Positions 921-16,871 of a stretch of DNA of 17,104 bases are shown piece after piece. Location of the stretch: the NCBI GenBank assembly GCA_048939465.1, contig JBHLPL010000036.1:1-17104 (forward strand), read 5' to 3'. Under the pieces are notes generated by a model. It did no database searches, was not told the origin of the DNA, and saw only the letters and a program-made list of their open reading frames with translations. The translations under genes were made by a program, and so were the position numbers. The number at the start of each line of letters is the position of its first letter. Within the stretch, counting starts at the first letter, position 1. This stretch comes from Promethearchaeota archaeon (lineage in GTDB: Archaea > Asgardarchaeota > Odinarchaeia > Odinarchaeales > JBHLKK01).

Positions 921-1760
921 CTAGGCAATTCTTAGATAATTCCTCAAGTCCAGTCTCTCGAGTCTCTCATTTATTTCGATTATCCCGTAAAAGCCTTTTC
1001 TGAATTCACCTACATTAAGAACATTCTCTGTGCGTCCTACTCCCTCATGAATGTGGCCACAGATCAGAGCCAGTGGTCTTGCTCTTTCGTAGACTTCTCT
1101 GATCGCTTTTGATCCTGCGTGACCTCGTTTGGTCAGGTCTCGCAACTCCAAAGGAGGCGCGTGAGTTATAATCACCTTCTTGTCGTATGATGAGACTTGC
1201 TCTAGCATCTCTAATAGCTCAGCAAGTGCATCTTCCTCATCAAATTCTGATTGAAATTCGAAGGGAGAAAGCTGCGCACCTCCGTAGCCCAGAAACACAA
1301 TATTGCCCTCTAGGTAGTAGTTCTTGTGAATGTTAACTATATTAGAGAACTTGGCAGCTTCCTCAGAAAAGATCTTGGGCGGATCATGATTTCCAGGTAT
1401 TACCAGTACTTTTCTTCCTTGCTCCTCAAAAACTTGGAATACCTCTTTCATCTGACTTCTGATTATCCTGTAAGTCTCAGGATTCTTCACCGTCATCTCA
1501 AGATAAGGGAATACGTTTGCTATGGATGACAGCCCGCCTGTCATGATCCCTCTTGCCTGATCGATGTCTTTTGCTCCTAATGCTTCGATGACTTCCTTTC
1601 CATATAATTGAATCAACGCACTTTCCTCACTGAGTTCGAAATCCATGACGTTTGAATAGTCTCCGGTTGAGGCTATTATGTCAGGAGATTCCTCTTCAAC
1701 CACATTATGCAGGTTTTGAAATCTTTTTGCATGTATATCTCCAATTATTATCGCTTTCAT
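921..1760 (-). CDS. Calcineurin-like metallophosphoesterase
   Basis: All five family motifs are present: GDIH, GDY, GNHD, THAPP, GHIHE. ATG at 1760 follows GGTGA; the track's GTG at 1769 is the alternative start. Confidence 0.9.
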   Translation of the reverse strand: MKAIIIGDIHAKRFQNLHNVVEEESPDIIASTGDYSNVMDFELSEESALIQLYGKEVIEALGAKDIDQARGIMTGGLSSIANVFPYLEMTVKNPETYRIIRSQMKEVFQVFEEQGRKVLVIPGNHDPPKIFSEEAAKFSNIVNIHKNYYLEGNIVFLGYGGAQLSPFEFQSEFDEEDALAELLEMLEQVSSYDKKVIITHAPPLELRDLTKRGHAGSKAIREVYERARPLALICGHIHEGVGRTENVLNVGEFRKGFYGIIEINERLERLDLRNYLRIA

Positions 1761-2090
1761 AAGGGTCACCCAGGACTGTTTGCTAGAAATAGGGAAAGTC
1801 TTAACTTAACAGTCTTGCGGAAGAGCAAGGGATATCTGGCAACAGAACTTCCTATCAGTGGGAGGGATGCAGCTCCTACCTGCCATAACAGATGCTGTAT
1901 CAGGTATGTGATTAGGGCTGGTTGACAAACAATCAAGGCCAATAATCAGAGTACCAAGTAGAGTTGGCATTCCTGTAAAGCAAAGACAAAAATAGCTGAA
2001 CTAACTAAACCATATGGCGAAGGAGTCAAAGGTACTACTCCTTGGTATGATGGCATCAATTCACATTTAGCTATTAAGAGGCGAAATACG

Positions 2091-2228
2091 TTGAAATGCG
2101 AGTCCTGTGGTCGGGAGATCAAAAAATACAAGAAGATTCCTCTGAAAGAAGATGAGGAGGAATCGATAGTCTGTATGGATTGCTATTATGCAATAATGAA
2201 GGAATGGATGGATCTAGTGGAAGACTGA
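2091..2228 (+). CDS. Small putative zinc-finger protein (45 aa)
   Basis: TTG start after AAGAGG gives MKCESCGREIKKYKKIPLKEDEEESIVCMDCYYAIMKEWMDLVED*, with two CxxC pairs. It is below the track's size cut-off. Confidence 0.6.
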   Translation: MKCESCGREIKKYKKIPLKEDEEESIVCMDCYYAIMKEWMDLVED

Positions 2229-2297
2229 AGGTTTCGATAAAGTCAGACTGGAGGAATATGACGTGTCGGCAGACGATAATTTGGAGGGAGTAGAAAT

Positions 2298-2594
2298 ATG
2301 GAAGAGGAAGAAACCGAAGAAACAGCAAAAGAAGTAGAAAAGGAAGTAGAAAGGGAAGCAGAAAAAGAAATGCCAAGAATAGCGATTGAAGTCATAAAAG
2401 GAATAATGAATCTGATAACGGGATTATCCGGAGAAGTCGAGACAGCCGGTGGAGAATGCGTCTTTGGTTGGCAGCGGCTACCTGGAGGAGAAGTTGAGTT
2501 TGTTGTAGAAGGACTTGAGCAGTCAATCTGTCTATTCAAGAAAAACACGGGAAAAAGCCCCACGAAATTGGACTGTCTCATATGCAGACTCTAA
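2298..2594 (+). CDS. Hypothetical protein, acidic N-terminus, C-terminal CxxC
   Basis: 98-aa ORF with GGAGG upstream of the ATG and a purine-rich coding-like composition. No family recognised. Confidence 0.55.
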   Translation: MEEEETEETAKEVEKEVEREAEKEMPRIAIEVIKGIMNLITGLSGEVETAGGECVFGWQRLPGGEVEFVVEGLEQSICLFKKNTGKSPTKLDCLICRL

Positions 2595-2697
2595 CGGTTT
2601 TCCATACTCGCACTGCAGAAAGAATTTTGCAGAACTGTTATGAATAAGTTCTCTCATAGATACTCAATGCCCCGTGACTCAGAGTTTTATCGAGGGG

Positions 2698-4278
2698 TTA
2701 TACTTCGACCGAAGGAGAAGGCAGTCTCTTATTCTCGTTATGCGATAGATTCAGAACTTTAACTATCAAATCTGATCTAACCTTTGACAATCCCTCATAA
2801 CGACCTTCATAGGCTGCTTTCTCGGCTCCAAGATCATAACAAGTTATCCCTTCTGTCGTTATGAGCAACCCCGGAACGCCAATCCTATCGAAGTCTTCAG
2901 CATGCTTCTCATAGAATTGTGTACAGCAACTCCCTACCCAAGCCAATTCTCCCATTTTCTTGAGTTTATTCAGCGTCTTCTCCAAATGCTCATAGCTTAC
3001 TATAGTCACAGGTCTGAAGCCGAGTTTCTCTGCATTCTCATAGATGGGTGTGAACTCACACAGACCACATTTAGTGCACTTCGGGTCATATCTTAAGTCA
3101 CATTCCAGGGGTTTGGCGCAATATGGCAGCAGCAAATACCTCGCAGTTTCCAGCACATATTCTGCAGGGGCCAAGACTTCTATAAGTTGATCTGCTTCAT
3201 CGGCTGATAATTCCAAGTCAAGTAACCGAACTTTTGACGCTGCTTCCATTATCGCCCTCGTTATATCTTTAACCGCCACTCCTGGTATATCCGCGTTAAG
3301 TGTATCAAATGCATTTTTCACGGCCTTATGGACATCTCGCTTTTCGATGGGCAATTGTTTGACTCTGCTTTCGATTTCATAAACAAGATTTTGTGGAAAA
3401 GCAAAGAAATCTCCAGTCAGATAAGTGGCATTAATTACGTTCTCATAGACGTTGACAGCAGCTCTGACAAGCCCTCCCGGCGCCTTTACGCTTGCGTGGA
3501 AAAAACCCCTCCTGGGAACTTTAACAAGATGTATCCACTCCTTTGAAGAAAAATGAGGTAGATTCGCTTCCAGGAGTTGAGTTTCATACGGTCTAAGACC
3601 TTCTGCTTTGAGAGAGATGCTGAAATAATCGCTGAATTCATCTGCAAAAGCATCCTTAATGATCTCAATATCCGGCAGATATCCTTTCTCTGATTTTACA
3701 GTGGTGATTCGCTCCTTCAGGGACCGAATCTCTTTATCCTGCAGTTTCTTGATGGGTATCCTCAAACATCTAAGCATCTCGGGGACGTCAAGATCCGTTA
3801 ATAGTGTTCCTTGAAACAAAAATGCGCCACCGAGTCTAGTTCCGCCGGTTCCGGAGATCTTACGACCACCAATCTCAATGTCATTTTTTGATCTGAACCT
3901 TGCCTTTAGGCCAAGTCTCTTAAGAGCTCTTACAGCGCCCTCACATATTGAAGCTGTGAGTTTTTCCATGCTCCCTGGAAATCTTTGATCCCATTTTGAG
4001 ATGATTTCCCACCCAAGATGAATCGGGGCGAAGTATATTGCACCTCCTCCTGTTAAACGGCGATTAATATCAACCCCGTTTTGCACACAGTAGTCTACTC
4101 GAACTTCTTGATCGATATCCTGGTGATAGCCTACTAGCACGCAGGGTTTTGAAAAACGTAGAAACCTAATAGTATTAGGTGCTCGTTCTTCAGAAACTGA
4201 AGTCAGGAGTACTTGGTCTAAAGCCATATTCTCAGCAGCACTTCTCAAACCCGTATCAATTAGTCTCCACTCTTCCAT
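2698..4278 (-). CDS. lplA: Lipoate-protein ligase (catalytic + C-terminal domains) fused to a Cys-rich DUF116-like domain
   Basis: LplA motifs: WRLIDTG..AAENMALD, RRLTGGGAIY, KNDI, RKISG (catalytic Lys), QGTLL. These are followed by a ligase C-terminal domain (KAPGGLVR...ITGDFF-like) and an extra ~140-aa tail with 8 Cys (PYCAKPLEC, CTKCGLC, GSCC, TCYD). Confidence 0.9.
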   Translation of the reverse strand: MEEWRLIDTGLRSAAENMALDQVLLTSVSEERAPNTIRFLRFSKPCVLVGYHQDIDQEVRVDYCVQNGVDINRRLTGGGAIYFAPIHLGWEIISKWDQRFPGSMEKLTASICEGAVRALKRLGLKARFRSKNDIEIGGRKISGTGGTRLGGAFLFQGTLLTDLDVPEMLRCLRIPIKKLQDKEIRSLKERITTVKSEKGYLPDIEIIKDAFADEFSDYFSISLKAEGLRPYETQLLEANLPHFSSKEWIHLVKVPRRGFFHASVKAPGGLVRAAVNVYENVINATYLTGDFFAFPQNLVYEIESRVKQLPIEKRDVHKAVKNAFDTLNADIPGVAVKDITRAIMEAASKVRLLDLELSADEADQLIEVLAPAEYVLETARYLLLPYCAKPLECDLRYDPKCTKCGLCEFTPIYENAEKLGFRPVTIVSYEHLEKTLNKLKKMGELAWVGSCCTQFYEKHAEDFDRIGVPGLLITTEGITCYDLGAEKAAYEGRYEGLSKVRSDLIVKVLNLSHNENKRLPSPSVEV

Positions 4279-4299
4279 TCCAAATCCCCGAACTGCTAA

Positions 4300-4324
4300 T
4301 GTTAATAAATCATTGCTTTAAAAC
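4300..4324. promoter_or_regulatory. Divergent archaeal promoter region between lplA and the flavoprotein
   Basis: 66-bp AT-rich intergenic region with TTTAAAAC (4317-4324, +) and TTTATTAA (about 4310-4303, -), each about 25-30 bp from a start codon. Confidence 0.45.
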
Positions 4325-4344
4325 AATTTCCTTGGTGCAATCAC

Positions 4345-5412
4345 TTGTATGATGTTGTCGTGGTAGGGTGTGGGCCTGCGGGGACGGTGGCCCTCCGACA
4401 ATGCGCAAGACTCAGACTGAAATCATTAGGGATTGAACAGTTCAGGATGCCTCGGCACAAGCCTTGTGCTGGGGTCATCTATCCCCGTGTCTTGGAGGAT
4501 TTCGAAGTCCCGAGGGAGGCAATAGCTGCCCCGCTCAGGGGCGTTAAGATGGTTTCTCCTAGCGGGAGCACTGCATTCATAAATTTCGCAGACGGTGGTG
4601 CAGTAATCCATCGAAATACATTCGATTACTTGCTAGCCACCAAAGCGAGAGAAGATGGGTCAGAAATTACCGATGGGATCAAGGTAGTTGGTGTAAATCT
4701 GCACGATGATCATTGCGAGCTTATTCTGAGGAACAGGGCTTCTGTTAAGTGTCGATACGTTATTGCTGCCGACGGAGTATATTCAACTGTGTGTCGTAAA
4801 CTTGGCAAACCTTGGGCCAAAGAAGACCTCGCACTGACTCTTCAGCTAACCTTAGCTGTCTCAAGAAAGGACAAGAAGAGCATCAACAATTATTTTGAGA
4901 CCTACTATGATAGTCGAAGAACCCCAGGGGGCTGGATGTGGGTCGTAGAAAGGGAAAAGGACGTCTTGGCGGGTCTTGGCCACGAGTTCAAGTATCGAAA
5001 GAAGGTGGGAAACCAGAATCAGGAATTGATCACCTTTCTCAGCCAGAGATTCAAAAGATTTGAGGTGCTGAAAAAGGAAACATATATGCTGCCATTCAAA
5101 GGTCCTCGTCTGAAGGAGGATCTGACACTGATGGATAGAATCTTGTTGACCGGAGATGCCGCCGGTTTTGTGAGAAGTGACACAGGAGAAGGTATTTATT
5201 ATGCTATGCATTCCGGATTAGCGGCGGCTGAGTCAATAGCGGATGTTATGGGTTCAGATGAGTCTTTGAAGGATATATATTTCAAGAAGCTGTGTGACCG
5301 CGGCCTGCACGTTCTCTACGTCACAACTGACCTCAAACATGCGCTTCTCGATAATGAATCCATGGAAAAATACATTAAAAGAATTAGGAAACTGACGGAA
5401 TTGTTCAAATAG
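4345..5412 (+). CDS. Geranylgeranyl-reductase-family FAD-dependent oxidoreductase (LipT-like candidate)
   Basis: Rossmann motif YDVVVVGCGPAG, KPCAG, IAADG, and GDAAGFV..TGEGIYYAMHSG. TTG start. Confidence 0.85.
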   Translation: MYDVVVVGCGPAGTVALRQCARLRLKSLGIEQFRMPRHKPCAGVIYPRVLEDFEVPREAIAAPLRGVKMVSPSGSTAFINFADGGAVIHRNTFDYLLATKAREDGSEITDGIKVVGVNLHDDHCELILRNRASVKCRYVIAADGVYSTVCRKLGKPWAKEDLALTLQLTLAVSRKDKKSINNYFETYYDSRRTPGGWMWVVEREKDVLAGLGHEFKYRKKVGNQNQELITFLSQRFKRFEVLKKETYMLPFKGPRLKEDLTLMDRILLTGDAAGFVRSDTGEGIYYAMHSGLAAAESIADVMGSDESLKDIYFKKLCDRGLHVLYVTTDLKHALLDNESMEKYIKRIRKLTELFK

Positions 5413-5452
5413 CAGATCCATTGACAGGATATCATGGCGAGCTTCAAAATTT

Positions 5453-5470
5453 TTAGAACATATGTTCTAA
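5453..5470. repeat. Perfect 18-bp palindrome TTAGAACATATGTTCTAA
   Basis: Read directly from the sequence. It lies between two convergent genes; near-identical copy at 6317-6334. Confidence 0.9.
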
Positions 5471-5553
5471 GTTGAACTATGGCTAACGCTCCCCGTGAGT
5501 TTTTCGAACTCCTATTTCCTATTGCTGAACCAAGGTTATGGAGACGAGAGCTT

Positions 5554-6174
5554 CTAATGATCCGCTGTTAATTCTTTCTCTCCAGTTGACTCTATAGGTT
5601 TCGCCACGAGGAGGCAAATCGCTCCCATTATTCCTACGATTGCTACAAGCAACAGCAGATAGCCGACAGCAAGATAAGAAAGAAACACAGGCAAGAATAA
5701 CCTAGCCGCCGATATGAATAATGCGAAGCCAGCAATGATGTAGATTAATCCTGTAAGACCCCAAGATCCTTTATTTTGTAGATATTCGCGATATTTTAGA
5801 AAAAAGGCACCGGTCAAGATTGCCGTTCCTCCAAAAGCGAGATGATCCATGGACAGCGCAATAAGCGATATCAACAGTATAGGGAATATAGGCAGAATGA
5901 AGTAAGCGATAAGGCCAACCAAAGAAGTAAGTATTCCAACTATCGAGGCAGTCAAGCCAACGCGTGAGCCTCCGAATCTGGCAATCAAGTCATTGTTGGC
6001 TGTTGTGAATACTGTTCCGAAGATTAGCAGAAACACGTAGGAGGCAAAGCTAAGCATGACATCTTCCAAGAATCCAATGCTTGCGGCGATCAAGTAGGAA
6101 AGTGACAGTAAAAGAGCCGAAATGAAGAACAAGATTTGACTGATAGCACCTCGACGAAATCCCCCTTCTGCCAT
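5554..6174 (-). CDS. Hypothetical polytopic membrane protein (~206 aa)
   Basis: About 6-7 hydrophobic segments. GGAGG precedes ATG 6174 (MAEGGFRR...), which is preferred over the track's start at 6222. Confidence 0.75.
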   Translation of the reverse strand: MAEGGFRRGAISQILFFISALLLSLSYLIAASIGFLEDVMLSFASYVFLLIFGTVFTTANNDLIARFGGSRVGLTASIVGILTSLVGLIAYFILPIFPILLISLIALSMDHLAFGGTAILTGAFFLKYREYLQNKGSWGLTGLIYIIAGFALFISAARLFLPVFLSYLAVGYLLLLVAIVGIMGAICLLVAKPIESTGEKELTADH

Positions 6175-6314
6175 TTTTCGGTTCTCCTCCTTACGCATAC
6201 GAAGGGTATGCTTTTGATGCAAGACTGCTCATAGTTATCAGGCCAACTTATACTTAAGACTTCTGAGGCAATTTTATGATCATAACGACAATAGGTTGGG
6301 TTTGTTGGCGAGAT

Positions 6315-6336
6315 CCTTAGAACATAAGTTCTAAGG
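6315..6336. repeat. 22-bp near-perfect palindrome CCTTAGAACATAAGTTCTAAGG
   Basis: Read directly. The core differs from 5453-5470 by one base. Confidence 0.9.
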
Positions 6337-6549
6337 GAACGCAGAGCCTGCCAGGCGATCCAGGATCTCTAAGAATCGAATCTCTAGAATCTTGTGCTCG
6401 ATTTCGAAGAACAATCAGCGCTGTTTTTCGATTTATAGTGTCCGAGAAGAGGAGTTTCCAGCATAAAGGAATGGCGTTCAATCATCTTTCAGACGCGCTC
6501 ACTGTTAGTCTTTTAGAGATAGGGCGGCTTCCAGATTCTTGTCGCCCTA

Positions 6550-6942
6550 TTAAAACGGCAAAAGATACCCAATAACCGTTACAATGATCCCTATGACTAT
6601 AGAGTAGGCCGATATTTGAAGAGCCCTCTTCCTGTCTTTTTGACGGGAATCCTCGCTTTCCACCTTGATGGTTCTTCCCACCTCTTCACCAACATTCTGA
6701 ACTGACAAAAGGGCAAAGTATACGCAAAAGCTCTTCCGCGCTTGTAGGAAGCCTAGCGCAGAAAATGTTGACGGGGCGATTATAATAAGACGCCAAAGCG
6801 GATTAAGATTTAGCAATACAAGTGAGGAGTATACAGCTACGGTCAAGACAAGACCAAACCATCCTAATATATTCCTTCTTCTGATTTCAGGGGCTCCGAT
6901 ATTGCAGACACCCGGATTGTATTCTCTTTCTTCACTATTCAT
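6550..6942 (-). CDS. Small hypothetical membrane protein (130 aa, ~3 TM)
   Basis: GAGGTGA upstream of the ATG. It has a YNPGVCNIG..EIRRR N-terminus and an FLQARKSFCV motif resembling a widespread uncharacterised family. Confidence 0.75.
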   Translation of the reverse strand: MNSEEREYNPGVCNIGAPEIRRRNILGWFGLVLTVAVYSSLVLLNLNPLWRLIIIAPSTFSALGFLQARKSFCVYFALLSVQNVGEEVGRTIKVESEDSRQKDRKRALQISAYSIVIGIIVTVIGYLLPF

Positions 6943-7083
6943 CTTTTCACCTCACTGGTGCCTATTCGCAGTACCTTAATACTCTCTATCAATGACGGAA
7001 TTCATTAAAAAGCATTTTACTTATGACTTATGCAGCCCCAGTGAGCGGTAAGTCAGATTCTTCAGAGAGAATAAAACGTGTTG

Positions 7084-7099
7084 ACCGCAAATTTAAAAA
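7084..7099 (+). promoter_or_regulatory. BRE + TATA box
   Basis: ACCGCAAA-TTTAAAAA, an archaeal-type BRE/TATA arrangement about 45 bp upstream of the ATG at 7144. Confidence 0.55.
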
Positions 7100-7143
7100 G
7101 CCCGGTATCCTAACGGAAATCAAAACGTCAGGAATGTAAGACA

Positions 7144-7284
7144 ATGGATAAGGATAAGAAGATCAAAATGAATTGCAATACAGACTGTCCTTATTTACGT
7201 CGATTATGTGTTTCTCTCCCGACAGCTGCCGAGACATGCTGCGGAGCAGAAGACGAGGCTCCCACATTCAAGGAAGACGACTAA
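7144..7284 (+). CDS. Small Cys-rich protein (46 aa)
   Basis: MDKDKKIKMNCNTDCPYLRRLCVSLPTAAETCCGAEDEAPTFKEDD*, with five Cys and its own BRE/TATA. It is below the track's cut-off. Confidence 0.55.
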   Translation: MDKDKKIKMNCNTDCPYLRRLCVSLPTAAETCCGAEDEAPTFKEDD

Positions 7285-7294
7285 TGTTCTAAGG
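7284..7294. repeat. Half site (ATGTTCTAAGG) of the palindromic motif
   Basis: 11-bp exact match to the reverse complement of the left arm of the 6315-6336 palindrome. It starts at the stop codon of the 46-aa ORF. Confidence 0.6.
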
Positions 7295-7338
7295 GATCGC
7301 GGGGTCCCCAGTATCTTATGGTCGTGAAATGCGTTCAG

Positions 7339-7419
7339 TTAGGTCTCTTCCAGAGCTATACCCAAATGAAGCAGAAGAATACCGATTATCGCAGCAACGA
7401 CGACATATGATCCAATCAT
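7339..7419 (-). CDS. 26-aa hydrophobic peptide coupled to the NuoI-B-D fusion (membrane anchor or NuoH remnant)
   Basis: The ATG overlaps the fusion's TGA (ATGA, 7419-7416). Translation: MIGSYVVVAAIIGILLLHLGIALEET*. Confidence 0.45.
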   Translation of the reverse strand: MIGSYVVVAAIIGILLLHLGIALEET

Positions 7420-9404
7420 CGGTCATGATCTGCCGGACAGTTATCCAAACTCCAGTAAATTACTGGAATGTCTGCCACGTATTTACCCCCCAGAACCTTC
7501 GGCATGGCAACAAGTATGCTGTCAAAAGTCGGGCCTCTGATTTTTACCCTATAGGGAGTTTTGTCTCCATTGCTTACTATGTGAAAGCATAGCTCCCCCC
7601 TTGCACTCTCAACACAATGAATTGCTTCCCCCTTAGGAAGGCGGGAAAACGGTGTGAACTTTTTGCCATTCCCCATTGTGCTTTCGGCTATTTCACCCTT
7701 TGGCATCTTTTCAAGAGCATTGTCAATTATCCTGAGACTTTCTTCCATTTCTTTTCGCCTACACAATGCCCTAGAATATGCGTCTCCCTTATCCAAACTT
7801 GCAACATCAAAATCCAGTTCGGTGAAGGCTTCGTAGGGCATGGTTTTCCTTATATCAAATTCAAAGGCCGAGGCCCTCGCATTTGGACCAGTTACATCTA
7901 GGTCTATGGCCATATCCCTGGGCAACTTCCCTATTTCCTTTGTCCTAGTTTTGAATGTTGGGTTATTAAAGCACAAATCATCGAAAAACTTGAGTTGTTT
8001 CTCCATATACTTCTTTACTTCCCCAAACTTCTCTTCGAAATCTGGGGGCATATCGCTCCTCACACCGCCCGGTATATTATAAATATGATATATTCTACTC
8101 TTAGTTAGTTTTTCCAATAGTAAGAGAATTTTCTCCCTTTCACCCCAAGTGATTTTTGTTACGGTGTCAAAACCTGCTGCCGAAGCTATCAGACCCAAGT
8201 TCAGTAAGTGGCTTTGTATTCTGCTCAGTTCACCGTGAACCACCCTAAGATACTTCGCTCTCCGTGGTACTTCAATCCCAGCCAGCTTGTCTAAAGCGCC
8301 TATGTAGGCTAATTCGTAACTTGCACCATCGAGCACGCATACACGTTGGACGAGCATAATATTTTGCCACCAAGTCCGGTACTCCATAAGTTTTTCAAAC
8401 CCTCTGTGGAGATAGCCCGGATTCGGTCTTACGCTCTTGATGGTTTCCCCGTCAAGCTTAAAATATACATTGAAGTTGCCTGAAGCTGGATGTTGAGATC
8501 CAAAGGGTATTGAGTACTCTCCTGGCTCTCTAGTTTCCCCTTGATATGGCGGAAGATCAAGAAAACCTTTTTCCTTATTTACCTTCTCTTCTTTGCCCAT
8601 ATATCCACCTTGAATAGCGTGGATAGCCATTAAGATTGCTAATCCTATCGGTTCTGGTCTGGGCGGACAGCCGGCTATCATTATGTCTACAGGTATGTAT
8701 CTTTCAAGGTCCTTTATGGTGTTATAGCTATCCCAGTAGGTTCCTCCATTGATCGGACAGCAACCCAGCGTCATTACGTATTTGGGACGGGGCATCTGTT
8801 GATAGATACGGATTATCCTTCTAAGGGTTTTTACTGTTACATAGCCGCCTATAAGCAACACATCGGAGTGTCTAGGTGAACCTTTGGCTAGCAGTCCAAA
8901 CCTTTCCATATCAAAACCACTGCTTACCCAAGGGACGGCTTCTATGAAGCAACAGCCAGTGAAGTAATTGTTGATCCATAAGCTACGTGAGATAGCCCAG
9001 TTCTTGATTCCCTTAATCTTAGGAGGTACTGGATGTTCAAGCTTTGGAGGCTCTGAAAGCTTTTCTGGCGGATAAACTAGCTCGTCCTTATTGTGAACGA
9101 CTAGAAACGGAAAATTCGAGAATGTGAGTGCCCCGCGGGAGCATATGTCAACACATAACCCGCAAAAGCAGCATTTACTGTAATCTATTTGGGGGTATAG
9201 TTTCTTCTCTCCGTTCTTTTTCCTTTCAACCATCTCGATGGCCAAGTTTGGACAAATCCTCTCGCAGAGCTTGCAGCCTATACACTCTTCCATGTCAAGA
9301 ATATGTCTCCCCCTGAAGCCTTCCGAAAGAGGCGTCTCAGGTGGGAAATTGAAGGTTATGGGCTTGTCCTTCAGCATTTTAAATTCTGCTTTGAAGAGGC
9401 TCAT
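7416..9404 (-). CDS. Triple fusion NuoI/MbxN + NuoB/MbxJ + NuoD/MbxL (complex I / sulfane reductase-like catalytic headpiece)
   Basis: N-terminal region: two ferredoxin-type motifs, CIGCKLCERICP and CCFCGLCVDIC. Middle: NuoB motifs TGCCFIE, FDMERFG, GCCPINGG, AGCPPRPE. C-terminal region: NuoD motifs GSQHP, GYLHRGFEKL, ELSRIQSHL, ESARGE, ending DNCPADHDR*. One uninterrupted 662-aa frame with GGTGA upstream. Confidence 0.92.
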   Translation of the reverse strand: MSLFKAEFKMLKDKPITFNFPPETPLSEGFRGRHILDMEECIGCKLCERICPNLAIEMVERKKNGEKKLYPQIDYSKCCFCGLCVDICSRGALTFSNFPFLVVHNKDELVYPPEKLSEPPKLEHPVPPKIKGIKNWAISRSLWINNYFTGCCFIEAVPWVSSGFDMERFGLLAKGSPRHSDVLLIGGYVTVKTLRRIIRIYQQMPRPKYVMTLGCCPINGGTYWDSYNTIKDLERYIPVDIMIAGCPPRPEPIGLAILMAIHAIQGGYMGKEEKVNKEKGFLDLPPYQGETREPGEYSIPFGSQHPASGNFNVYFKLDGETIKSVRPNPGYLHRGFEKLMEYRTWWQNIMLVQRVCVLDGASYELAYIGALDKLAGIEVPRRAKYLRVVHGELSRIQSHLLNLGLIASAAGFDTVTKITWGEREKILLLLEKLTKSRIYHIYNIPGGVRSDMPPDFEEKFGEVKKYMEKQLKFFDDLCFNNPTFKTRTKEIGKLPRDMAIDLDVTGPNARASAFEFDIRKTMPYEAFTELDFDVASLDKGDAYSRALCRRKEMEESLRIIDNALEKMPKGEIAESTMGNGKKFTPFSRLPKGEAIHCVESARGELCFHIVSNGDKTPYRVKIRGPTFDSILVAMPKVLGGKYVADIPVIYWSLDNCPADHDR

Positions 9405-9416
9405 AACTCATTTCAC

Positions 9417-9890
9417 CTACGGAGCACTTTCATAAGTCTCCTTCACGTATTTCTTCCAATCAAACTCCTTTCTAAAAGGTGGTGGACCGTCCCACTTCTC
9501 AAGAAACAGTGGTTTTAACATGGCATTTCCATCAAAAGTAATTCCAAACAGTTCCCAGATTTCCCGTTCATGCATGGCGCTGTTTTCCCACAGCGAAGAT
9601 AAGCTTCGAATCCTGGTTTCATCTCTTGGTATTCTTGCAGCAACTTTGGCGTACAAATTCTTCGTAGGATTGTGAACTATATAATATATCTCAAATTCCT
9701 TTTCCTCCAGCCAGTCAACGGCTGAAACTGTTAGAAGCCTTCTAAAGCCCTTGTTCTTTAAAAATTCTGCAACTCCGCTATAATTGACCTTAGATACCCT
9801 GATAAATAGGAATCTGCCCTTGATCTCGCATTCAGCATTAAAATGCGTTTCTAACTCTTTAGAGATTTCATGAGAAATGAAATCTTTCGT
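9417..9890 (-). CDS. nuoC: NuoC/MbxK-like subunit (start codon uncertain)
   Basis: The frame is open from 9893 to the TAG at 9417: PTKDFISHEISKELETHF...GFRRLLTVSAVDWLEEKEFEIYYIVH...SLWENSAMHEREIWELFGITFDGN..LKPLFL. These are classic NuoC motifs. The track shows only the last 79 aa because no in-frame ATG/GTG/TTG occurs earlier; ACG at 9890 follows a G6A tract. Confidence 0.85.
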   Translation of the reverse strand, partial: TKDFISHEISKELETHFNAECEIKGRFLFIRVSKVNYSGVAEFLKNKGFRRLLTVSAVDWLEEKEFEIYYIVHNPTKNLYAKVAARIPRDETRIRSLSSLWENSAMHEREIWELFGITFDGNAMLKPLFLEKWDGPPPFRKEFDWKKYVKETYESAP

Positions 9891-9933
9891 GGGCTATCCC
9901 CCCTGGCTAAGCTTTACCACAGAGATAGTTCTG

Positions 9934-9950
9934 AGTATTTAAGTTTTGCT
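9934..9950 (-). promoter_or_regulatory. BRE + TATA box of the nuoC / nuoI-B-D operon
   Basis: AGCAAAACTTAAATACT on the minus strand. The 12-mer AACTTAAATACT recurs exactly at 13480-13491. Confidence 0.55.
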
Positions 9951-10084
9951 AGTAGAGATTTTTCTGCCCTTATGTTAATGTAAGAAGCTATCGGCTGATC
10001 TCTCCCAGTAGGAGTTAGTACAAGCTTTGAGACAATAAAGTTAAAAATGAAAAGGCATGAGTATCTTCAGAAGGAGGGAAAAGA

Positions 10085-11200
10085 TTGGAGTCTCCTGACT
10101 ATGTGAGGCTTAGTAATGCAGCAGATATTACTTTGGGCTATAGTCAAGGGAGATTTTGGAAGAATGCCAAGTTATTCTGCATAAATGTTCTCCTTTATTT
10201 TGAGGATGGATGCAAAGCCAACTGTCTTTATTGCGGTCAGGGAAGAGACACCTCAAGCTCTGCAATATGCAAGTCACTGATCAGGGTTGAATGGCCTCTG
10301 AGGCCGTTGGATGAGAGCATAGAGAAGTTCAGAGAGAGATATGTGGGTTCTGGATCATTTCACAGACCGTACAGATTCTGCGTAAGCACAATAACGCATG
10401 CAAAAGCTGTTAAAGCCGAGATCGAGGTCGTTGAGAGAATTCAACGCGAGCTAAGAGTTCCGGTATCGGCTCTGATTTCGCCAACCATTTTCACAAGAGA
10501 AGCGATGGAACAACTAAGAGAAGCGGGAGCAGAACGAATAGGGATTGCAATCGACTGTGCCAACAAAGATTCATTCTTTGCACTGAGGGGAAAAGGAGCC
10601 CACGGGCCCCACAGATATGATAGATATCTTGAAGGAGTCAGAGAAGCGGTTGACATTTTTGGTCCGGGAAAGCCAGGCATTCATCTAATCGTAGGTCTAG
10701 GCGAGACGGAGGAAGAAGCTATTAATTTGATACGGAGTGTAGATGACATGGGCGCGGAGACTCACCTATTCTCATTCTATCCAGAGCCTGAAAGCCTGCT
10801 TTCGGAATGGAAAAGACCAGACATCGGTCAGTACAGACGCATTCAACTAGCAAGATACATCATAAATAACAGAATGGCAGATCCCGACTGCATGGAGTTC
10901 AACGAGCAGGGCCAGATAGTGGGATTCGGTCTAAGCGAGAGATTCCTGCGGAGAATCTGTGAGAATGGCGAGCCGTTCATGACCTCAGGATGCCCGGGAT
11001 GTAATCGTCCGTTCGCCAACGAAAGACCTGGTGAGGTCATCAGAAATTTCCCGTACCATTTATCTATAAAGGAATCAAAAACCGCATTCAAACAAGCACG
11101 GATATACGAAGAGCCAAAGAATACGTTCAAGCATTTAGAGAAATATGTGCAGGGAAAGACCAGAGAAAAAGCGAAGGAAATATCAGTTCTCAGTGCCTAG
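10085..11200 (+). CDS. lipS2: Radical SAM enzyme, LipS2-type archaeal lipoyl synthase subunit
   Basis: CKANCLYC (CX3CX2C), a biotin-synthase-like core, and C-terminal TSGCPGCNRP, matching the TxGCPxC(N/D)RP motif described for LipS2 homologs of Thermococcus kodakarensis. TTG start after GGAGG. Confidence 0.8.
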   Translation: MESPDYVRLSNAADITLGYSQGRFWKNAKLFCINVLLYFEDGCKANCLYCGQGRDTSSSAICKSLIRVEWPLRPLDESIEKFRERYVGSGSFHRPYRFCVSTITHAKAVKAEIEVVERIQRELRVPVSALISPTIFTREAMEQLREAGAERIGIAIDCANKDSFFALRGKGAHGPHRYDRYLEGVREAVDIFGPGKPGIHLIVGLGETEEEAINLIRSVDDMGAETHLFSFYPEPESLLSEWKRPDIGQYRRIQLARYIINNRMADPDCMEFNEQGQIVGFGLSERFLRRICENGEPFMTSGCPGCNRPFANERPGEVIRNFPYHLSIKESKTAFKQARIYEEPKNTFKHLEKYVQGKTREKAKEISVLSA

Positions 11201-11298
11201 AATTCTTGTGTTCACCGCTTCATGATGATTTTCGGGTATCTACGTATCTCAGAGTACATCCTTGTTTGGGTTTAATTGCTCTGTGGAGGGGAATATTG

Positions 11299-11625
11299 AT
11301 GAAATCATGTCCAAGATGTGGAAAAGAAGTGCAGAAGGATGCAAGCTACTGCGTTCATTGTGGAGCTTACCTTGAGAGCCTTTGGGAGGAAGAATATTCA
11401 GTCCCTTCAGATGGACTAATTGAGAGAATTAAGAAGCTTATTCATGAGGGAAACGTCAGAAGGATTGTGGTTAAGAACGAAGAAGGAAAAATCCTGATCG
11501 AAATACCGGTATCATTAGGAATAATAGGGGCAATTCTGGCCCCGTGGTTGGCAGCTCTCGGGGCAATTGCTGCAATAGCTTCAAAATGCACAATAGTTGT
11601 AGAAAGAAGGGGAAAAGAAGGCTAG
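11299..11625 (+). CDS. Zinc-ribbon + DUF4342-domain protein
   Basis: CPRCG...YCVHCG ribbon, then IKKLIHEGNVRRIVVK...EIPVSLG...LAPWLAALG...CTIVVER. GGAGGGG precedes ATG 11299, so the track's start at 11206 is probably too long. Confidence 0.8.
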   Translation: MKSCPRCGKEVQKDASYCVHCGAYLESLWEEEYSVPSDGLIERIKKLIHEGNVRRIVVKNEEGKILIEIPVSLGIIGAILAPWLAALGAIAAIASKCTIVVERRGKEG

Positions 11626-11642
11626 AGAAGCGCGGCAAGGGA

Positions 11643-12503
11643 CTACTCAAACTTGCTTTCAAAGTCTTTTGCAAATTTTGAATCCGAGTAAGCTTTTAAG
11701 CGTTCAGTGGTGGTTGAATAAATATCGATTACTTCTTCTTCGACCATGAGTGGATTCTCCGCTATCCGCGAGTCAATTTCACTCAGTCTCTTTATCAGGA
11801 TTCTTCTTTCCTCTGGGGGCATAACGCTGGGATCTGTCATGGCAGCTGCCCTAGTGTCAATCTTCGCATCCAGAAGGTATTTGAATGCCACAAATGGAAG
11901 TTCGTAGAATTTTCCAATAGCTCCCGTTCTCTCTGTAAATCCCTCAGGAGTAGCTGCTTTGAAGGATACTCTGACATACAGCTTGTCTGCAAAAGGCTTA
12001 AGCTGGTTAACATAATCCTTATCAGCACCAAAGAGAACACCATTCGTTTCCAAAATGAAAAGAGGATACTCTGAATCCATCACTCGTTCCAGAACGGAAA
12101 GCAAATGCTCTTTCCCAATCGTGGGCTCGCACCCTGACAATCTAAGCTTGTTGATCTTAAGATGCTTGAACCGCTCCCACCCGCGAGCAGTTATTCCTTC
12201 TTTGGCGGCCTTGAAAAGCCCTTCAGCCACTCCTTGTGGGGAATAGAATTCGCCAAATTTCTCAGGAAAATCTCTAGACCAGTTGCCCCAGCAGTAGATG
12301 CAACGCAGACAACAGCCTGCTGCGTAGCCAGTTGCGATTCCTCTGTAGACTGGGGCAGAATAAATGCCAGTGTACTTTCTTTCTAGTCCTTCCGGACCAG
12401 GTCTAGTCACAATCTTCTCGGTTTCTTTGGCCAATTCAAGTGGATTAAAAGGCTCCGAATCTGAGCTAAAAAGACGAGGATATTCTTTCATTCTTCTAGT
12501 CAA
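11643..12503 (-). CDS. Radical SAM protein of unknown function (archaeal predicted Fe-S oxidoreductase type)
   Basis: YRGIATGYAAGCCLRCIYCW (CX3CX2C), RLSGCEPT, ILETNG, VRVSFKA. No SPASM motif. The TTG overlaps the upstream stop; ATG 12491 is an alternative start. Confidence 0.85.
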   Translation of the reverse strand: MTRRMKEYPRLFSSDSEPFNPLELAKETEKIVTRPGPEGLERKYTGIYSAPVYRGIATGYAAGCCLRCIYCWGNWSRDFPEKFGEFYSPQGVAEGLFKAAKEGITARGWERFKHLKINKLRLSGCEPTIGKEHLLSVLERVMDSEYPLFILETNGVLFGADKDYVNQLKPFADKLYVRVSFKAATPEGFTERTGAIGKFYELPFVAFKYLLDAKIDTRAAAMTDPSVMPPEERRILIKRLSEIDSRIAENPLMVEEEVIDIYSTTTERLKAYSDSKFAKDFESKFE

Positions 12504-13282
12504 CTCACGTTTATGATTTTGATTTCGTTTAGATCAGCCACACCTAATCCTCTTGACTGAGCAAGCCTCAAATGATCTATCGATAGGGGATCATAGCCGA
12601 GCATGTTTGCTCCAACAGCGTCCGCAGCAACCAGATCCTTGGAAATTATGACTACTCCCACTTCCTTTGGCCTCGCTCGGAGTTCTCCTCCTGTTCCACC
12701 AACAATTCCGTCAATTATGGCTAAATCTGGTTTTATGTAGAAGTTTAGGTCTATAATGCTTTCACTGAGTCTTCGATGGAACCGCCCTTTTTTGAATACA
12801 GCACTGGTCTTATCTCCCAGAGTCGCGCCTAGCATATTCTTCAGGGAAAGGGTTACAGTAGTCAAGGAATGTGTTTTGAGAATTGGAACTGAGACTATGT
12901 AGGCATTTTCAAGAGTGATAGGAAACTCGAATTCCTTTACAAAAGAGGCTGACGGGTCTCTTCTGATTTCATACTTATCTTCATTAAGGTCTACGAGTTG
13001 TATGCCATACTCCTTCGCAATCTCAGAATAGCCTAACGCTTGATAAGCCTCCGAGGTTGTGCCCCATCCGGTGCCCTCAGCGATTATAACCTCAAACTCC
13101 TTATGAAAATACTTCACAATTGCTTCAATGGTCTGGCATGGTGTTGTTGTGGGGGGAGGTGAGCTGTTGATTAGGTTTGGTTTGAGGATGATTTTCTCTG
13201 GTTGGGGCTTCTCAAAATGCTTTAAGGCATTTGGTATCATTTTCTCAGGATTTTCTCCCTCTGCAATTATGACCCTAGACAA
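12500..13282 (-). CDS. DUF362-domain protein
   Basis: ILKPNL, IIAEG, VPILKTH, TLSLKNMLG, LAIIDG and DLVAADAV motifs typical of DUF362. Confidence 0.85.
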   Translation of the reverse strand: MSRVIIAEGENPEKMIPNALKHFEKPQPEKIILKPNLINSSPPPTTTPCQTIEAIVKYFHKEFEVIIAEGTGWGTTSEAYQALGYSEIAKEYGIQLVDLNEDKYEIRRDPSASFVKEFEFPITLENAYIVSVPILKTHSLTTVTLSLKNMLGATLGDKTSAVFKKGRFHRRLSESIIDLNFYIKPDLAIIDGIVGGTGGELRARPKEVGVVIISKDLVAADAVGANMLGYDPLSIDHLRLAQSRGLGVADLNEIKIINVS

Positions 13283-13283
13283 G

Positions 13284-13460
13284 AAAAAAACCCCAGCTAT
13301 CCTCTCATTGATTGAGTCATGATGTGAACTACTCCATCATTAGGATGGAGCTTCCTGTTTCATCCATCCCCCAGCGGGACACGTCTCTCAGGCTCCACGG
13401 ACAGTTCCTGCCCTGAAACCTTGTTTGCGAATTGGCGAGTGTTACGTCAGCTCAATTCCA
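13284..13460 (-). ncRNA. Candidate structured leader / small RNA
   Basis: Lies between a TATA box (13480-13491) and a T7 run (13290-13284). It contains several stems and no credible ORF; no RNA family recognised. Confidence 0.25.
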
Positions 13461-13479
13461 TATGGTTGTCTCAAAAACA

Positions 13480-13497
13480 AGTATTTAAGTTCCTCGC
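13480..13497 (-). promoter_or_regulatory. BRE + TATA box
   Basis: GCGAGGAACTTAAATACT on the minus strand, with the same core as 9934-9945. Confidence 0.5.
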
Positions 13498-13612
13498 AAA
13501 TCCTCTCCGCCTTTTCGGGCAGAGTCTCCTTGAAGGGATTCAGATGGACATCAGTCGATACGGCGCAGAAGTGTTGAAGATTGTTCTATAACGCCACGAA
13601 TACACATTGCGC

Positions 13613-13960
13613 CTAAAGACTTTTTCTTATATTGTCGAGTGTCTTCTTTGCAGAAGAATCCTTCAAGATTCCCCAAAGCCTGTCAAGTTTCGCACAGGCA
13701 TATTCGTCACAGTAAGCGCAGTTCACCACATCCCTCTCCATACAGCAACTCCTTACCTCGCAGGTTGAGCAGAAGCTAATTTGTCTTTTTCCGACTGCAA
13801 GACAGCCATCACAATTGATATCTTCAGGTTTCAGTACTTCTGTCTCTGACGACCAGGCTTTAGCAAGTTTCTTTTTTGCCTCATAATCGTTTTTCTGTGT
13901 GGCAATAAATCCGGGACACTCGGTGCAAGTAAGCCCACAGAAGGCAATCATTTTCTCCAA
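13613..13960 (-). CDS. DUF3795-domain Cys-rich protein
   Basis: AFCGLTCTECP, CDGC, CSTCEVRSCC, NCAYCDEYAC. TTG start after AGGAGG. Confidence 0.85.
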   Translation of the reverse strand: MEKMIAFCGLTCTECPGFIATQKNDYEAKKKLAKAWSSETEVLKPEDINCDGCLAVGKRQISFCSTCEVRSCCMERDVVNCAYCDEYACAKLDRLWGILKDSSAKKTLDNIRKSL

Positions 13961-14175
13961 GATTCCTACCTCCTTTTAATGAAGCATCTCTTTCTTCCTT
14001 CTAGCTTTTAAGCTTTGGAGACTCCAATATAAGTGACACAATTGAATATTAAATTACCTAGTTATTAAGAAGCCTCTCAATCCTACTGCCGTTCAAGCTA
14101 TCAGGATTATTTCTTCTTCTTAATTCAAAAAAGACAAACGCTTTTTTTGAAGCATGGTATATTGGGAATCTGATA

Positions 14176-14967
14176 CTAAAGAAGGCTCTTAACCAACCCT
14201 CCGTCAACTTGAATGGTTGTGCCAGTGACATAACTTGCTTTTTCTGAGGACAAGAAGACCACCAAATTGGCGATTTCCTCTGGCTGCGCGAGACGACCCA
14301 GTGGAATCTTTTGTTCCCAAGCTTCGTAGACTTCCTCTTCAGAGACACCATCTTCTATTGCTTTACTTCTGGCCAGCTCTCTTACCCTCTCCGTCAGCGT
14401 ATAACCGGGACCAACAACGTTAATCAGTATATTATCCTTGGCCATCTCATTTGATAAGCTCTTGGAGAGTCCCACAACGCCGGCGCGAACCGCATTGGAA
14501 AGAATTAGTCCATCGATCGGTTGCTTCACCGATACAGAAGTCATGTTTATTATTCTGCCCCACTTCTGCTTTTTCATATAGGGAATCACTGCTCTACAAA
14601 GATAAATTGTGCTCATAAGGTTTAGATCAACAGCCCTCTCCCAAGTCTCCTGAGGGATATCTTCAAAAATCCCAGTAGGAGGACCCCCTGAGTTGCTGAC
14701 GAGTATATCAATTCTGCCGAATTTCTCTGCTACACTTCGAACGAGTCTCTGAACATCTTCTTCTACCGTAACATCTACCCTGACAGCCAGAATTTCAACG
14801 CCTGTTTTTTCCCTTATCTCATCAGCTGTTGCTTTTAGAGCTTCTTCGCCTCTGGCACATATGGCTAATTTAGCGCCTTCTCGTGCAAGTGCCAGGGCTA
14901 TGGCCTTGCCAATCCCCTTGCTCGAAGCCGCAACGACAGCTACCTTACCATCAAGACCTAAATCCAA
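14176..14967 (-). CDS. Short-chain dehydrogenase/reductase (SDR)
   Basis: GKVAVVAASSKGIG, IDILVSNSG, INVVGPG, IPLGRLAQPEEIA..FLSS..ASYVTG..IQVDGG. TTG start after GGAGG. Confidence 0.92.
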   Translation of the reverse strand: MDLGLDGKVAVVAASSKGIGKAIALALAREGAKLAICARGEEALKATADEIREKTGVEILAVRVDVTVEEDVQRLVRSVAEKFGRIDILVSNSGGPPTGIFEDIPQETWERAVDLNLMSTIYLCRAVIPYMKKQKWGRIINMTSVSVKQPIDGLILSNAVRAGVVGLSKSLSNEMAKDNILINVVGPGYTLTERVRELARSKAIEDGVSEEEVYEAWEQKIPLGRLAQPEEIANLVVFLSSEKASYVTGTTIQVDGGLVKSLL

Positions 14968-15170
14968 TTCTCAACCTCCAGAACCGCTTCATAAGAGACT
15001 ATGCTTTGAAGGTCTTTCATTCATTGTTTTATACTTTTCTGTGGGCATTTGGTCATAGATGGCGAACACGCATGGGCTAAAGTGGTCTGGCCTAAGATGA
15101 AGGGTCGTAAATCTCGATCCTAAAAAGATATATATCCCATCCTGAATGTAGTACGGGGAGACGAGAGCAA

Positions 15171-15683
15171 GTGATAAAGGCGGTCTTCTTTGATTTAGGG
15201 GATACATTAATTTCCGAAGAAGTAGTGGAGAGAATGTCGCTGCGGGATGCAAAACTGGAGAAACTGCCGTACGTTGATCGTGTTCTGAATAAGCTAACGG
15301 AAAAATACAAGCTGGGGCTAATAACTAATACTACAACTTCCAGAGAAGAGGACGTAAGGTGTGCGTTACGTAGAATTGGCATAGAAAAATACTTCGATGT
15401 AGTCTTAACATCGGTTGATGCGAATTCAAGAAAACCGGATGAAAAAATCTTCCAAATAGCTCTTAGTGCCATTGGAGTTAATCCGGAAGAAGCTATTATG
15501 GTGGGCAACCGCATATCAAGTGATATTTTGGGTGGGAATGAAATGGGTATGAGGACGATCCTGTTTAGGTGGAATGAAAGATACCCCGAAAGAGTCAATT
15601 CGCCACAAGAAAGGCCAACTCGAATAATCAAATCGCTCAAGGATTTGCCAAAAGTTCTTGAGGGACTGGAAAGAGAATCTTAG
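15171..15683 (+). CDS. HAD-superfamily hydrolase
   Basis: AVFFDLGDTL, LITN, RKPDEKIF, MVGNRISSDILG. GTG start. Confidence 0.85.
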   Translation: MIKAVFFDLGDTLISEEVVERMSLRDAKLEKLPYVDRVLNKLTEKYKLGLITNTTTSREEDVRCALRRIGIEKYFDVVLTSVDANSRKPDEKIFQIALSAIGVNPEEAIMVGNRISSDILGGNEMGMRTILFRWNERYPERVNSPQERPTRIIKSLKDLPKVLEGLERES

Positions 15684-15704
15684 GCCTATGACGTTCTGAG
15701 AGGT

Positions 15705-16862
15705 TCACAATTTGCCGAAGAAATCGGTCAAACGATTGATTCCTTCCTCCAGATCCCTATCTGGTATAGCATAGCATATTCTGAAGTTGTATTCACCGCC
15801 AGCCCCAAATAACGTTCCTGGGGCCACAGCCACGCCTGCATCAAACAGCATTCTTTTGGAAAGGTCATCGGCACGGATTCCGAAACTCTTTGCGCTTGGG
15901 TAGATGTAGAATGCTCCTTCAGGAATCTGAAAACCAAGACCGCCTATCTTTTCGAGTCCTTCGACAATAGCATCTCTCTTCGCGCTGCTTTGTATGAGGA
16001 GGTTCTTGACGTAGGATTCAGCTTCTTTCAGAACATCTATACATGCTCTTTGGATGAAAGTCGGGGGCCCAGTTACACTGTGCTGTTGCACAATGTTCAT
16101 TGCATCTATTAGTTCTCTAGGTCCAGCAGCATATCCAATTCGCCATCCTGTCATCGCAAAGACTTTGGAAAAGCTGTCAACCACTAAGGTTCTATCTCTT
16201 GCACTCTTGATAGATGCTTGACTTATATGCTTCCTGCCCCCATAGATGTAAGCCCAGTCAACCTCATCGGATAGTATGAGAATCTCATGATCCTCTGTTA
16301 AGTCGCTTATTGCTCGAAGGCTTTGAACATCCAGAACTCCTCCAGTAGGATTATTAGGCGTATTAATGACGAGGACCTTTGTTTTGGAAGTTATTGCTCC
16401 TTTCAGTCTTTCCTCATCGACCAAGTAAGGTTCTTTGGCAAGTACCTCCTTGATTCTCTTACATCCAAAGAGGAGTGGGATGGCTTTGAAGCTACTCCAG
16501 TAAGGAGTCAAAAGGATGACTTCGTCTCTGGCCGAGAGCACGGAGGCAAAAAATGAGTATATTGCGAATTTCGCTCCTGGAGTAACAATTATCTCTTCGG
16601 GATCATAGTTCAAGTCTCTCGATTCTTTCAAGAACTTGGTGATAGCTTCCCTCAGTTCAAGAATGCCTCTCGTGGGGGCATAACGAAGATGTCCCTCTTC
16701 CAAGGCTTTAACGGTAGACCCTATAGCTGACGGGGGAGGATCAAAATAAGGCTCTGCTACATCAAATCTCACGACTTTGATCCCTTTTTGGATTTCCACC
16801 CTTGCGATGTCATCAGCAATCGCAACAGGCGATATCGGTATCGAGCTAAAGTCCTTGATCAT
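15705..16862 (-). CDS. PLP-dependent aminotransferase class I/II (aspartate-aminotransferase-like)
   Basis: YAPTRGILELREAI, INTPNNPTG, ILSDEV, SFSKVFAMTGWRIGY (PLP Lys), GAFYIYP, FRICY. Confidence 0.93.
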   Translation of the reverse strand: MIKDFSSIPISPVAIADDIARVEIQKGIKVVRFDVAEPYFDPPPSAIGSTVKALEEGHLRYAPTRGILELREAITKFLKESRDLNYDPEEIIVTPGAKFAIYSFFASVLSARDEVILLTPYWSSFKAIPLLFGCKRIKEVLAKEPYLVDEERLKGAITSKTKVLVINTPNNPTGGVLDVQSLRAISDLTEDHEILILSDEVDWAYIYGGRKHISQASIKSARDRTLVVDSFSKVFAMTGWRIGYAAGPRELIDAMNIVQQHSVTGPPTFIQRACIDVLKEAESYVKNLLIQSSAKRDAIVEGLEKIGGLGFQIPEGAFYIYPSAKSFGIRADDLSKRMLFDAGVAVAPGTLFGAGGEYNFRICYAIPDRDLEEGINRLTDFFGKL

Positions 16863-16871
16863 ATGGATACA

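Follow-up and report, generated by a model that had tools for sequence, protein, structure and literature searches.

A NuoC-like gene and a NuoI-NuoB-NuoD fusion on an Odinarchaeales contig: a candidate two-gene peripheral arm of the MBS/Mbx kind

The stretch of DNA analyzed here, called the window below, is positions 1 to 17,104 (17,104 nucleotides) of contig JBHLPL010000036.1, from a Promethearchaeota archaeon of the order Odinarchaeales (GenBank assembly GCA_048939465.1). Our subject is a pair of adjacent genes on its reverse strand: a NuoC-like gene and, directly downstream, a single open reading frame (ORF) in which NuoI-, NuoB-, and NuoD-like subunits are fused. We think it somewhat likely that the two genes make up a complete four-subunit peripheral arm of the kind found in the membrane-bound sulfane reductase (MBS, formerly Mbx) and in other hydrogenase-related ("Ehr") complexes, an arm with neither a NiFe site nor a quinone site, and that its likeliest role is that of a ferredoxin-driven, probably soluble, MBS-like reductase. 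The cysteine signature of the fusion is no discovery by itself, as it assigns the protein to a branch already known, the MBS/Mbx-like, hydrogenase-related one. What matters is the packaging: a whole peripheral arm is held in two genes, which this genome or its congener gained or lost together in a 2.7-kb segment, the majority of carriers lack a membrane anchor for the fusion, and elsewhere the fusion is joined to two kinds of membrane arm or to a formate dehydrogenase. A full-text literature search of incomplete coverage found no paper on a NuoI-NuoB-NuoD fusion, so one may exist.

The fused gene and its relic metal sites

The fusion ORF runs from 7416 to 9404 on the reverse strand of the window and encodes 662 amino acids (aa). 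Pfam recognizes a 2x[4Fe-4S] ferredoxin (Fer4) domain at aa 35-92, Oxidored_q6 at 165-257, and Complex1_49kDa at 411-662, and the NCBIfam models for NuoI, NuoB, and NuoD match along the ORF in that order; we therefore describe it as a NuoI-NuoB-NuoD (MbsN-MbsJ-MbsL-like) fusion, a kind of protein to which annotation at present wrongly gives the name "NADH-quinone oxidoreductase subunit D." Approximately 70 full-length relatives share the fusion at 55-75% identity. Motif counts given below were taken over 69 cluster representatives with the same fusion, and invariance is judged from a 28-sequence alignment.

Each of the three parts finds its best solved match in MBS of Pyrococcus furiosus (PDB 6U8Y). 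The NuoI-like domain (aa 1-125; 9030-9404, reverse strand) matches MbsN (6u8y_N) at 80 bits, and its eight invariant cysteines (C41, C44, C47, C51, C78, C81, C84, and C88) are predicted to hold two [4Fe-4S] clusters. The NuoB-like domain (aa 126-270; 8595-9029, reverse strand) scores 156 bits against MbsJ, 132 against NdhK, and 94 against Nqo6. Its C151, C216, and C246 are invariant and its C152 is variable; added to the eight upstream cysteines, the invariant three would be enough for three [4Fe-4S] clusters in all. The NuoD-like domain (aa 296-662; 7419-8519, reverse strand) scores 283 bits against MbsL (6u8y_L), 237 against Nqo4, and 191 against MbhL. In a confident AlphaFold2 model of the fusion (predicted local distance difference test [pLDDT] 81.9, predicted template modeling score 0.87), this part fits MbsL best, with a Foldseek target TM-score of 0.90 at 39% identity, and the match confirms the NuoD/MbsL fold. 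Between the B and D parts, aa 271-295 (8520-8594, reverse strand) form a poorly conserved linker, gapped and variable in the alignment, whose residues 278-286 have a pLDDT below 50.

The two positions at which a hydrogenase would bind nickel and iron are both present as relics. The first reads C356-V-L-D359 (8328-8339, reverse strand), with Cys356 encoded by TGC at 8339-8337 and Asp359 by GAT at 8330-8328, both within QRVCVLDGASYE. The second reads C656-P-A-D659 (7428-7439, reverse strand) in the sequence SLDNCPADHDR, with Cys656 encoded by TGT at 7439-7437 and Asp659 by GAT at 7430-7428; H660-D661-R662 follows, and the TGA stop (7418-7416) comes directly after it, leaving no C-terminal extension. 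In the small-subunit part, the tandem Cys151-Cys152 is encoded by TGT TGC at 8949-8954 (reverse strand), in YFTGCCFIEA. A preliminary description of this DNA had reported RVCVLD and DNCPADHDR with these cysteine positions, TGCCFIE in the small-subunit part, and the lack of a C-terminal maturation extension, and it was exact in all of them; the range it gave, 7416-8970, covers the B and D parts and leaves out the first 145 residues, with which the ORF reaches 9404 and takes in the NuoI-like domain. Among the fused relatives, the first site is CxxD in 65 of 69 and the second in 66 of 69, and P657-A658-D659-H660-D661-R662 is invariant. Because it is shared across the 69 relatives, the pattern is, judged by sequence conservation, not a matter of chance. 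Two smaller features lie close by. A second tandem cysteine, LGCCPIN (8757-8762, reverse strand; aa 215-216), reads GNCP in most relatives, and only its Cys216 is invariant. A 26-codon hydrophobic ORF, MIGSYVVVAAIIGILLLHLGIALEET (7338-7418, reverse strand), overlaps the stop codon of the fusion through ATGA; we considered its 26-aa product as a membrane anchor and rejected it, as none of 12 relatives has a comparable ORF after the fusion.

Neither of the two enzyme classes to which such a protein might be assigned fits these residues. The ligand motifs of group 4 hydrogenases, RxCGxCxxxH and DPCxxCxx[HR], are replaced by RVCVLDGASYE and DNCPADHDR, so that two of the four cysteines remain. The quinone ligands of complex I are missing as well: there is no His38, the beta1-beta2 loop being QHPASGNF against HPSTHG in Nqo4, and Val357 stands at the position of Tyr87 (RLDY) in the alignment to Nqo4. 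The profile scores fall on either side of their cut-offs, with TIGR01962 (NuoD) at 309 bits, below 459, and PRK06075 (NuoD) at 390 bits, above 360. Since two NiFe cysteines, His38, and Tyr87 are all absent, we take the fusion to be neither a hydrogenase nor a quinone reductase. That it is not a hydrogenase had been proposed in the preliminary description, which also noted that MbxL/MbsL keeps two of the four cysteines, and both points stand: MbsL reads CxxE/CxxD and is the closest solved relative of the D part, and the same genome encodes two true CxxC/CxxC group 4 large subunits on contig C109 (RTCGICNATH/DPCFSCSDR and RVCGICSQPH/DPCIACTCR), both ending in a C-terminal tail and accompanied by a NuoH gene and a small subunit of the CxxC type. 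The two [NiFe]-hydrogenase operons lie in tandem at 1623-12207 of that contig; their large subunits are NuoC-NuoD fusions of 579 and 577 aa, and the small subunit of the second contains SGSCNCCDIE, in which CxxC and a tandem CC occur together.

The conservation of the relic sites invites a further reading, in which the two cysteines, the two aspartates, and His660 are ligands of a metal center, mononuclear or unusual in some other way, that is the real catalytic site, possibly with residual H2 chemistry. C356, D359, C656, D659, and H660 are nearly invariant across the family, the two cysteines have been lost together in one relative, and genes for CooC- and CooT-like nickel chaperones lie directly downstream of the fusion in two Anaerolineales species. 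The same two cysteines are, however, dispensable in MBS (PMC7684303), and cysteines at the NiFe positions of NuoD homologs from Mbx, Mbx-like, and Fpo complexes have been called vestigial (Degli Esposti 2015; PMC4758237); the CooC/CooT linkage is confined to one lineage, and the fusion has no C-terminal maturation tail. We give a metal center of this sort very little credence. The relative in question, a protein of 671 aa (P0020), is the only family member without the relic cysteines, reading RINVLDG and DNAPADHDR, and the joint loss hints that the two residues act as a pair. In the Anaerolineales loci (L011, L096, and L101), the fusion gene is followed by genes for a CooC-like ATPase, CooT (of the nickel chaperone family), and DUF1638, with Fe-dependent repressors, FeoB, ZIP, and CbiQ encoded nearby. 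We saw this arrangement in no archaeal locus, and CooC/CooT was rejected as a general partner of the fusion.

Phylogeny and the tandem cysteine

A tree was built for each of the two parts, over 364 columns for D and 145 for B, with FastTree and IQ-TREE (LG+G4, quick searches), and rooted on the hydrogenases. Groups were named from their motifs, and MBS-type rows were recognized by motif together with the HMMER score against 6U8Y. The patterns used to scan contigs were built on GYLHRGFE, and they thereby missed Thermococcales MbsL (GFLHRGFE) and canonical NuoD. No TIGR01962 match above the cut-off was found in 151 genomes of the phylum, which consequently provided no canonical NuoD outgroup. 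In both trees the Nuo-like proteins stand apart as one clade. The fused proteins make up another (support of 100 in the D tree), sister to unfused A-type complexes that combine CxxD/CxxD with TACG (support of 87 in D and 92 in B), and in both trees the MBS-type and Cys-less complexes fall into one group with this pair. When the fusion was constrained to join the Nuo-like proteins, the D part was 50 log-likelihood units worse, and the approximately unbiased (AU) test rejected the constraint (p = 0.012); for the B part the loss was 37 units (p = 0.057). A constraint joining the fusion to MBS was not rejected by the AU test (p = 0.28 and 0.27).

These results bear on the idea, put forward in the preliminary description, that the protein is a hybrid, a form that stands between MBS and complex I in evolution and pairs an MBS-like large subunit with a NuoB-type tandem-Cys small subunit. 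In its favor are the CC found in this protein and in 53 of its 69 relatives, the PRK06075 score above its cut-off, the presence of the fusion within a Nuo-type operon in three relatives, and the AU test of the short B part, which gives no formal rejection. The B part is nested, however, among CG-type clades, and branches with support of 97 and 98 separate it from the Nuo-like CC; the union is rejected for the D part; the TIGR01962 score falls short and the quinone ligands are absent. The remaining 16 of the 69 relatives have CG in place of CC, these members are scattered over at least four separate places in the family tree, so that the state of the second cysteine has changed at least four times, and the sister clade is CG. 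The tandem CC is thus best read as a labile Gly/Cys position beside three invariant cluster ligands, not as a complex I character. The CxxD/CxxD pattern, for its part, is the known relic of the MBS/Mbx branch: as in MbsL, each CxxC has kept its first cysteine and exchanged the second for an acidic residue. With a relic pattern of this kind and a labile tandem cysteine, the hybrid or intermediate interpretation is unsupported, and we regard it as improbable. What the preliminary description named as refuting its idea is partly borne out: known clades already show the motif pattern, although the fusion lies in a clade of its own, beside MBS and not inside it. In a sample of 80 loci, the full combination of CxxD/CxxD and CC without quinone ligands occurs in the fused family only. 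Cys152 adjoins the ligand-type Cys151, and Gly occupies its position in MbsJ as in the 16 relatives; it could serve in this protein as a fourth cluster ligand.

Gene neighborhood, mobility, and proposed role

The partner of the fusion is a NuoC/MbsK-like open frame of 158 codons (9417-9893, reverse strand; Pfam PF00329, 93 bits), bounded upstream by a TAG in the same frame (9896-9894), with a GTG, also in frame, 8 codons further upstream. NuoC and NuoD are a textbook pair of subunits that bind each other. The gene is 46-58% identical to the NuoC-like gene found directly upstream of the fusion in relatives, an arrangement that holds at every locus with upstream sequence (n = 22). When the window was compared by blastn and blastp with the genome of a congener (G001:C13; L189), the two genes proved to be contained in an indel: the congener has approximately 222 bp (7598-7819) where the window has a 2.7-kb cassette (7285-10026), and the flanks on both sides are syntenic at about 78% nucleotide identity. 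No direct repeats or mobile-element genes were seen at the indel borders. Given so clean an indel against a syntenic congener, the cassette appears to be an accessory two-gene unit that moves without membrane genes, and it was probably acquired horizontally. Among 400 genomes from the phylum of the window, 23 have the fusion, and it was not found in any of the six others of the class; its closest relatives are Hecatellales proteins (73-75% identity), and it is spread patchily over Asgard archaea, Bathyarchaeia, Thermoplasmata, and Anaerolineae.

The surroundings of the cassette speak to whether the arm works on a membrane. At 12 loci there is no membrane-related gene within about 9 kb of it. 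The genome under study has two NuoH genes, both inside the hydrogenase operons, and in its assembly, which is 91% complete, there is no unpaired NuoH and none near the cassette. In four other genomes (G307, which is 100% complete, and G122, G292, and G089) each NuoH gene lies beside its own unfused NuoD, which leaves none for the fusion; in a further genome (G108) one NuoH and one unfused NuoD lie on separate contigs, C71 and C74. At three loci (L017, L091, and L092) NuoC and the fusion come last in a Nuo-type A-H-J-x-K-L-N operon, and on a metagenomic contig (L018) the fusion comes last in an Mrp/MBS-type operon, MrpF-G-MbhD-MnhB-K-MnhE-antiporter-x-NuoH. The two proteins of the cassette might then be the peripheral arm of an ion-pumping enzyme, docking on a membrane arm encoded elsewhere, either in an unassembled NuoH operon or through one shared with the two hydrogenase operons. 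The four complete membrane operons that the fusion closes are consistent with this, as are loose antiporter-like clusters on contigs C10 and C49 of this genome, the incompleteness of the assembly, and the conservation of the membrane-facing loop. Against it, no third NuoH was found in this genome, every NuoH adjoins its own NuoD in the four genomes just named, and no membrane genes travel with the two genes of the cassette. On balance we think such docking unlikely.

A partner of another kind is suggested by three Asgard genomes, from two families and in two gene orders (L008/L085, L086, and L081), in which genes for FlpD (MvhD-like), FdhA, and FdhB adjoin NuoC and the fusion. The arrangement suggests a soluble formate-linked assembly in those lineages. 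Extended to the whole family, it would make the module an electron-transfer connector for a soluble dehydrogenase such as FdhAB-FlpD, without a substrate of its own, and "FDH-Ehr" assemblies of this type have been proposed before (PMC6349859). However, the cassette has no neighboring Fdh genes either in this window or at 12 other loci, and the best FdhA-like matches in this genome are 24-26% identical and lie on other contigs. As a general explanation it strikes us as highly improbable.

We return, then, to a ferredoxin-driven reductase of the MBS kind. The arm would carry two [4Fe-4S] clusters in its NuoI part and one proximal [4Fe-4S] cluster in its NuoB part. Reduced ferredoxin would dock on the NuoI part, as in MBS and NDH, electrons would pass through the three clusters, and an acceptor would be reduced at or beside the proximal one. 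Sulfane sulfur or polysulfide is our leading candidate for that acceptor, a tentative choice made by analogy with MBS. For this genome, a module that functions with no membrane arm, and hence with no ion pumping, seems rather likely. If it does work alone, it would offer a small, expressible model for catalysis at a proximal iron-sulfur cluster and would represent a ferredoxin sink in Asgard metabolism.

Several points weigh against this proposal. In MBS, the membrane anchor MbsM takes part in forming the substrate chamber, and there is no such anchor here. The full membrane operons of four relatives (Nuo-type in three, Mrp-type in the fourth) indicate that the family can be membrane-bound, and orphan members conserve the beta1-beta2 loop just as well; a NuoH gene in the unassembled part of the genome is possible. 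The relic cysteines, nearly invariant and lost together in one relative yet dispensable in MBS, may have a role beyond the MBS analogy. The NuoC-like frame contains no ATG, GTG, or TTG in its first 79 codons and so has no canonical start; since relatives start with Met at the aligned position (window 9417-9920), the codon that starts this gene is either non-canonical or has been mutated or mis-sequenced. The trees were built from sequences other than those of P. furiosus, with the Thermus and Methanosarcina references also outside them. Finally, the enzymatic role of every family member is read from sequence.

In a larger context, we speculate that NuoC and NuoI-B-D form a "plug-and-play" redox head that stands by itself and moves horizontally. 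For most carriers this head would be a soluble ferredoxin-dependent reductase, in effect a membrane-free MBS; elsewhere it would be plugged into Nuo-type arms, Mrp-type arms, or FdhAB-FlpD, and its cluster of Cys, Asp, and His residues could mark a substrate or metal site absent from MBS. We consider this picture possible and put it forward tentatively. If true, it would provide a living example of the modular exchange thought to have assembled complex I-like enzymes.

Comparison with known systems

Group 4 [NiFe]-hydrogenases, represented by the two operons on contig C109 and by MbhL (PDB 6CFW), have the same fold and subunit set as the fusion. They differ in having CxxC at both sites, C-terminal extensions, and CxxC-type small subunits, none of which the fusion shares. 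The archaeal Fpo/Nuo-like proteins (Asgard loci L175-L188 and Thermoplasmata locus L171) resemble it in other respects, combining a tandem CC with vestigial cysteines at both sites (RLCY... and D[PL]C...), in agreement with an earlier survey (PMC4758237). These proteins keep HPxxHG (His38) and the Tyr of RLCY, quinone- or phenazine-type ligands that the fusion does not have, and they form a clade apart, their union with it being rejected by the D-part AU test.

The nearest relatives of both parts are unfused Mbx-like/Ehr complexes of Bathyarchaeia, Chloroflexota, Bacillota, Hadarchaeota, and others (L093, L094, and L102-L107), at approximately 50% identity in D and likewise with CxxD/CxxD (RICILDP and DPCPADMDR). 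Their subunits are encoded by separate genes in an operon of the order J-K-L-N-A-B-C-D-(I)-H, always with NuoH and antiporter-like genes, and in this the fusion differs; their small subunit has TACG, one Cys followed by Gly, and there is no His in their CPADMDR. In two of these loci (L093 and L094) the complexes adjoin GltD-like flavoproteins (Fer4_20 and Pyr_redox_2), one of which, in L093, is fused to NuoC in a protein of 610 aa, an arrangement that fits published "mbx-like" operons with a GltD-like subunit in place of NuoI. By the definition quoted in PMC6349859, group 4-like large and small subunits without NiFe ligands are a feature of such complexes, and the fusion has them; the Mrp- or antiporter-like membrane subunits that belong to the same definition are found alongside neither in this window nor at 12 other loci.

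MBS of P. furiosus (MbsL, MbsJ, MbsN, and MbsK) remains the closest solved counterpart. With RICVPE and SLDNCPPDIDR, MbsL has the pattern CxxE/CxxD and shares both relic cysteines (its C85 and C385) with the fusion; both proteins keep the first Cys of each NiFe pair only, have no quinone ligands, and end at ...DR without a tail. The MbsJ ligands C28, C93, and C123 align with C151, C216, and C246 of the fusion. The first site is VLDG in the fusion and VPEP in MbsL; MbsJ reads FCTGCGGIE, with G29 aligned to C152, so that the fusion has an extra Cys beside a ligand Cys, and MbsJ Cys25 has no counterpart in it. The fusion lies outside the MBS-type clade (CVP[DE]P/CPP[DE], with a CTGCG small subunit), whose bacterial and DHVE2 members read RICVP[DE]P and CPP[DE]. 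Unlike MBS, it holds three subunits in one chain, and this genome offers it neither an MbsM anchor nor an Mrp-type arm; an anchor on an Mrp-type arm is present in the relative at L018. In MBS the proximal [4Fe-4S] cluster has three Cys ligands, which leave one iron open (the CxxCG loop being shortened), and is the proposed catalytic site, and the soluble MbsJKLN subcomplex is active in vitro and reduces polysulfide (PMC7684303). The two-gene module of the window would be the natural counterpart of that subcomplex.

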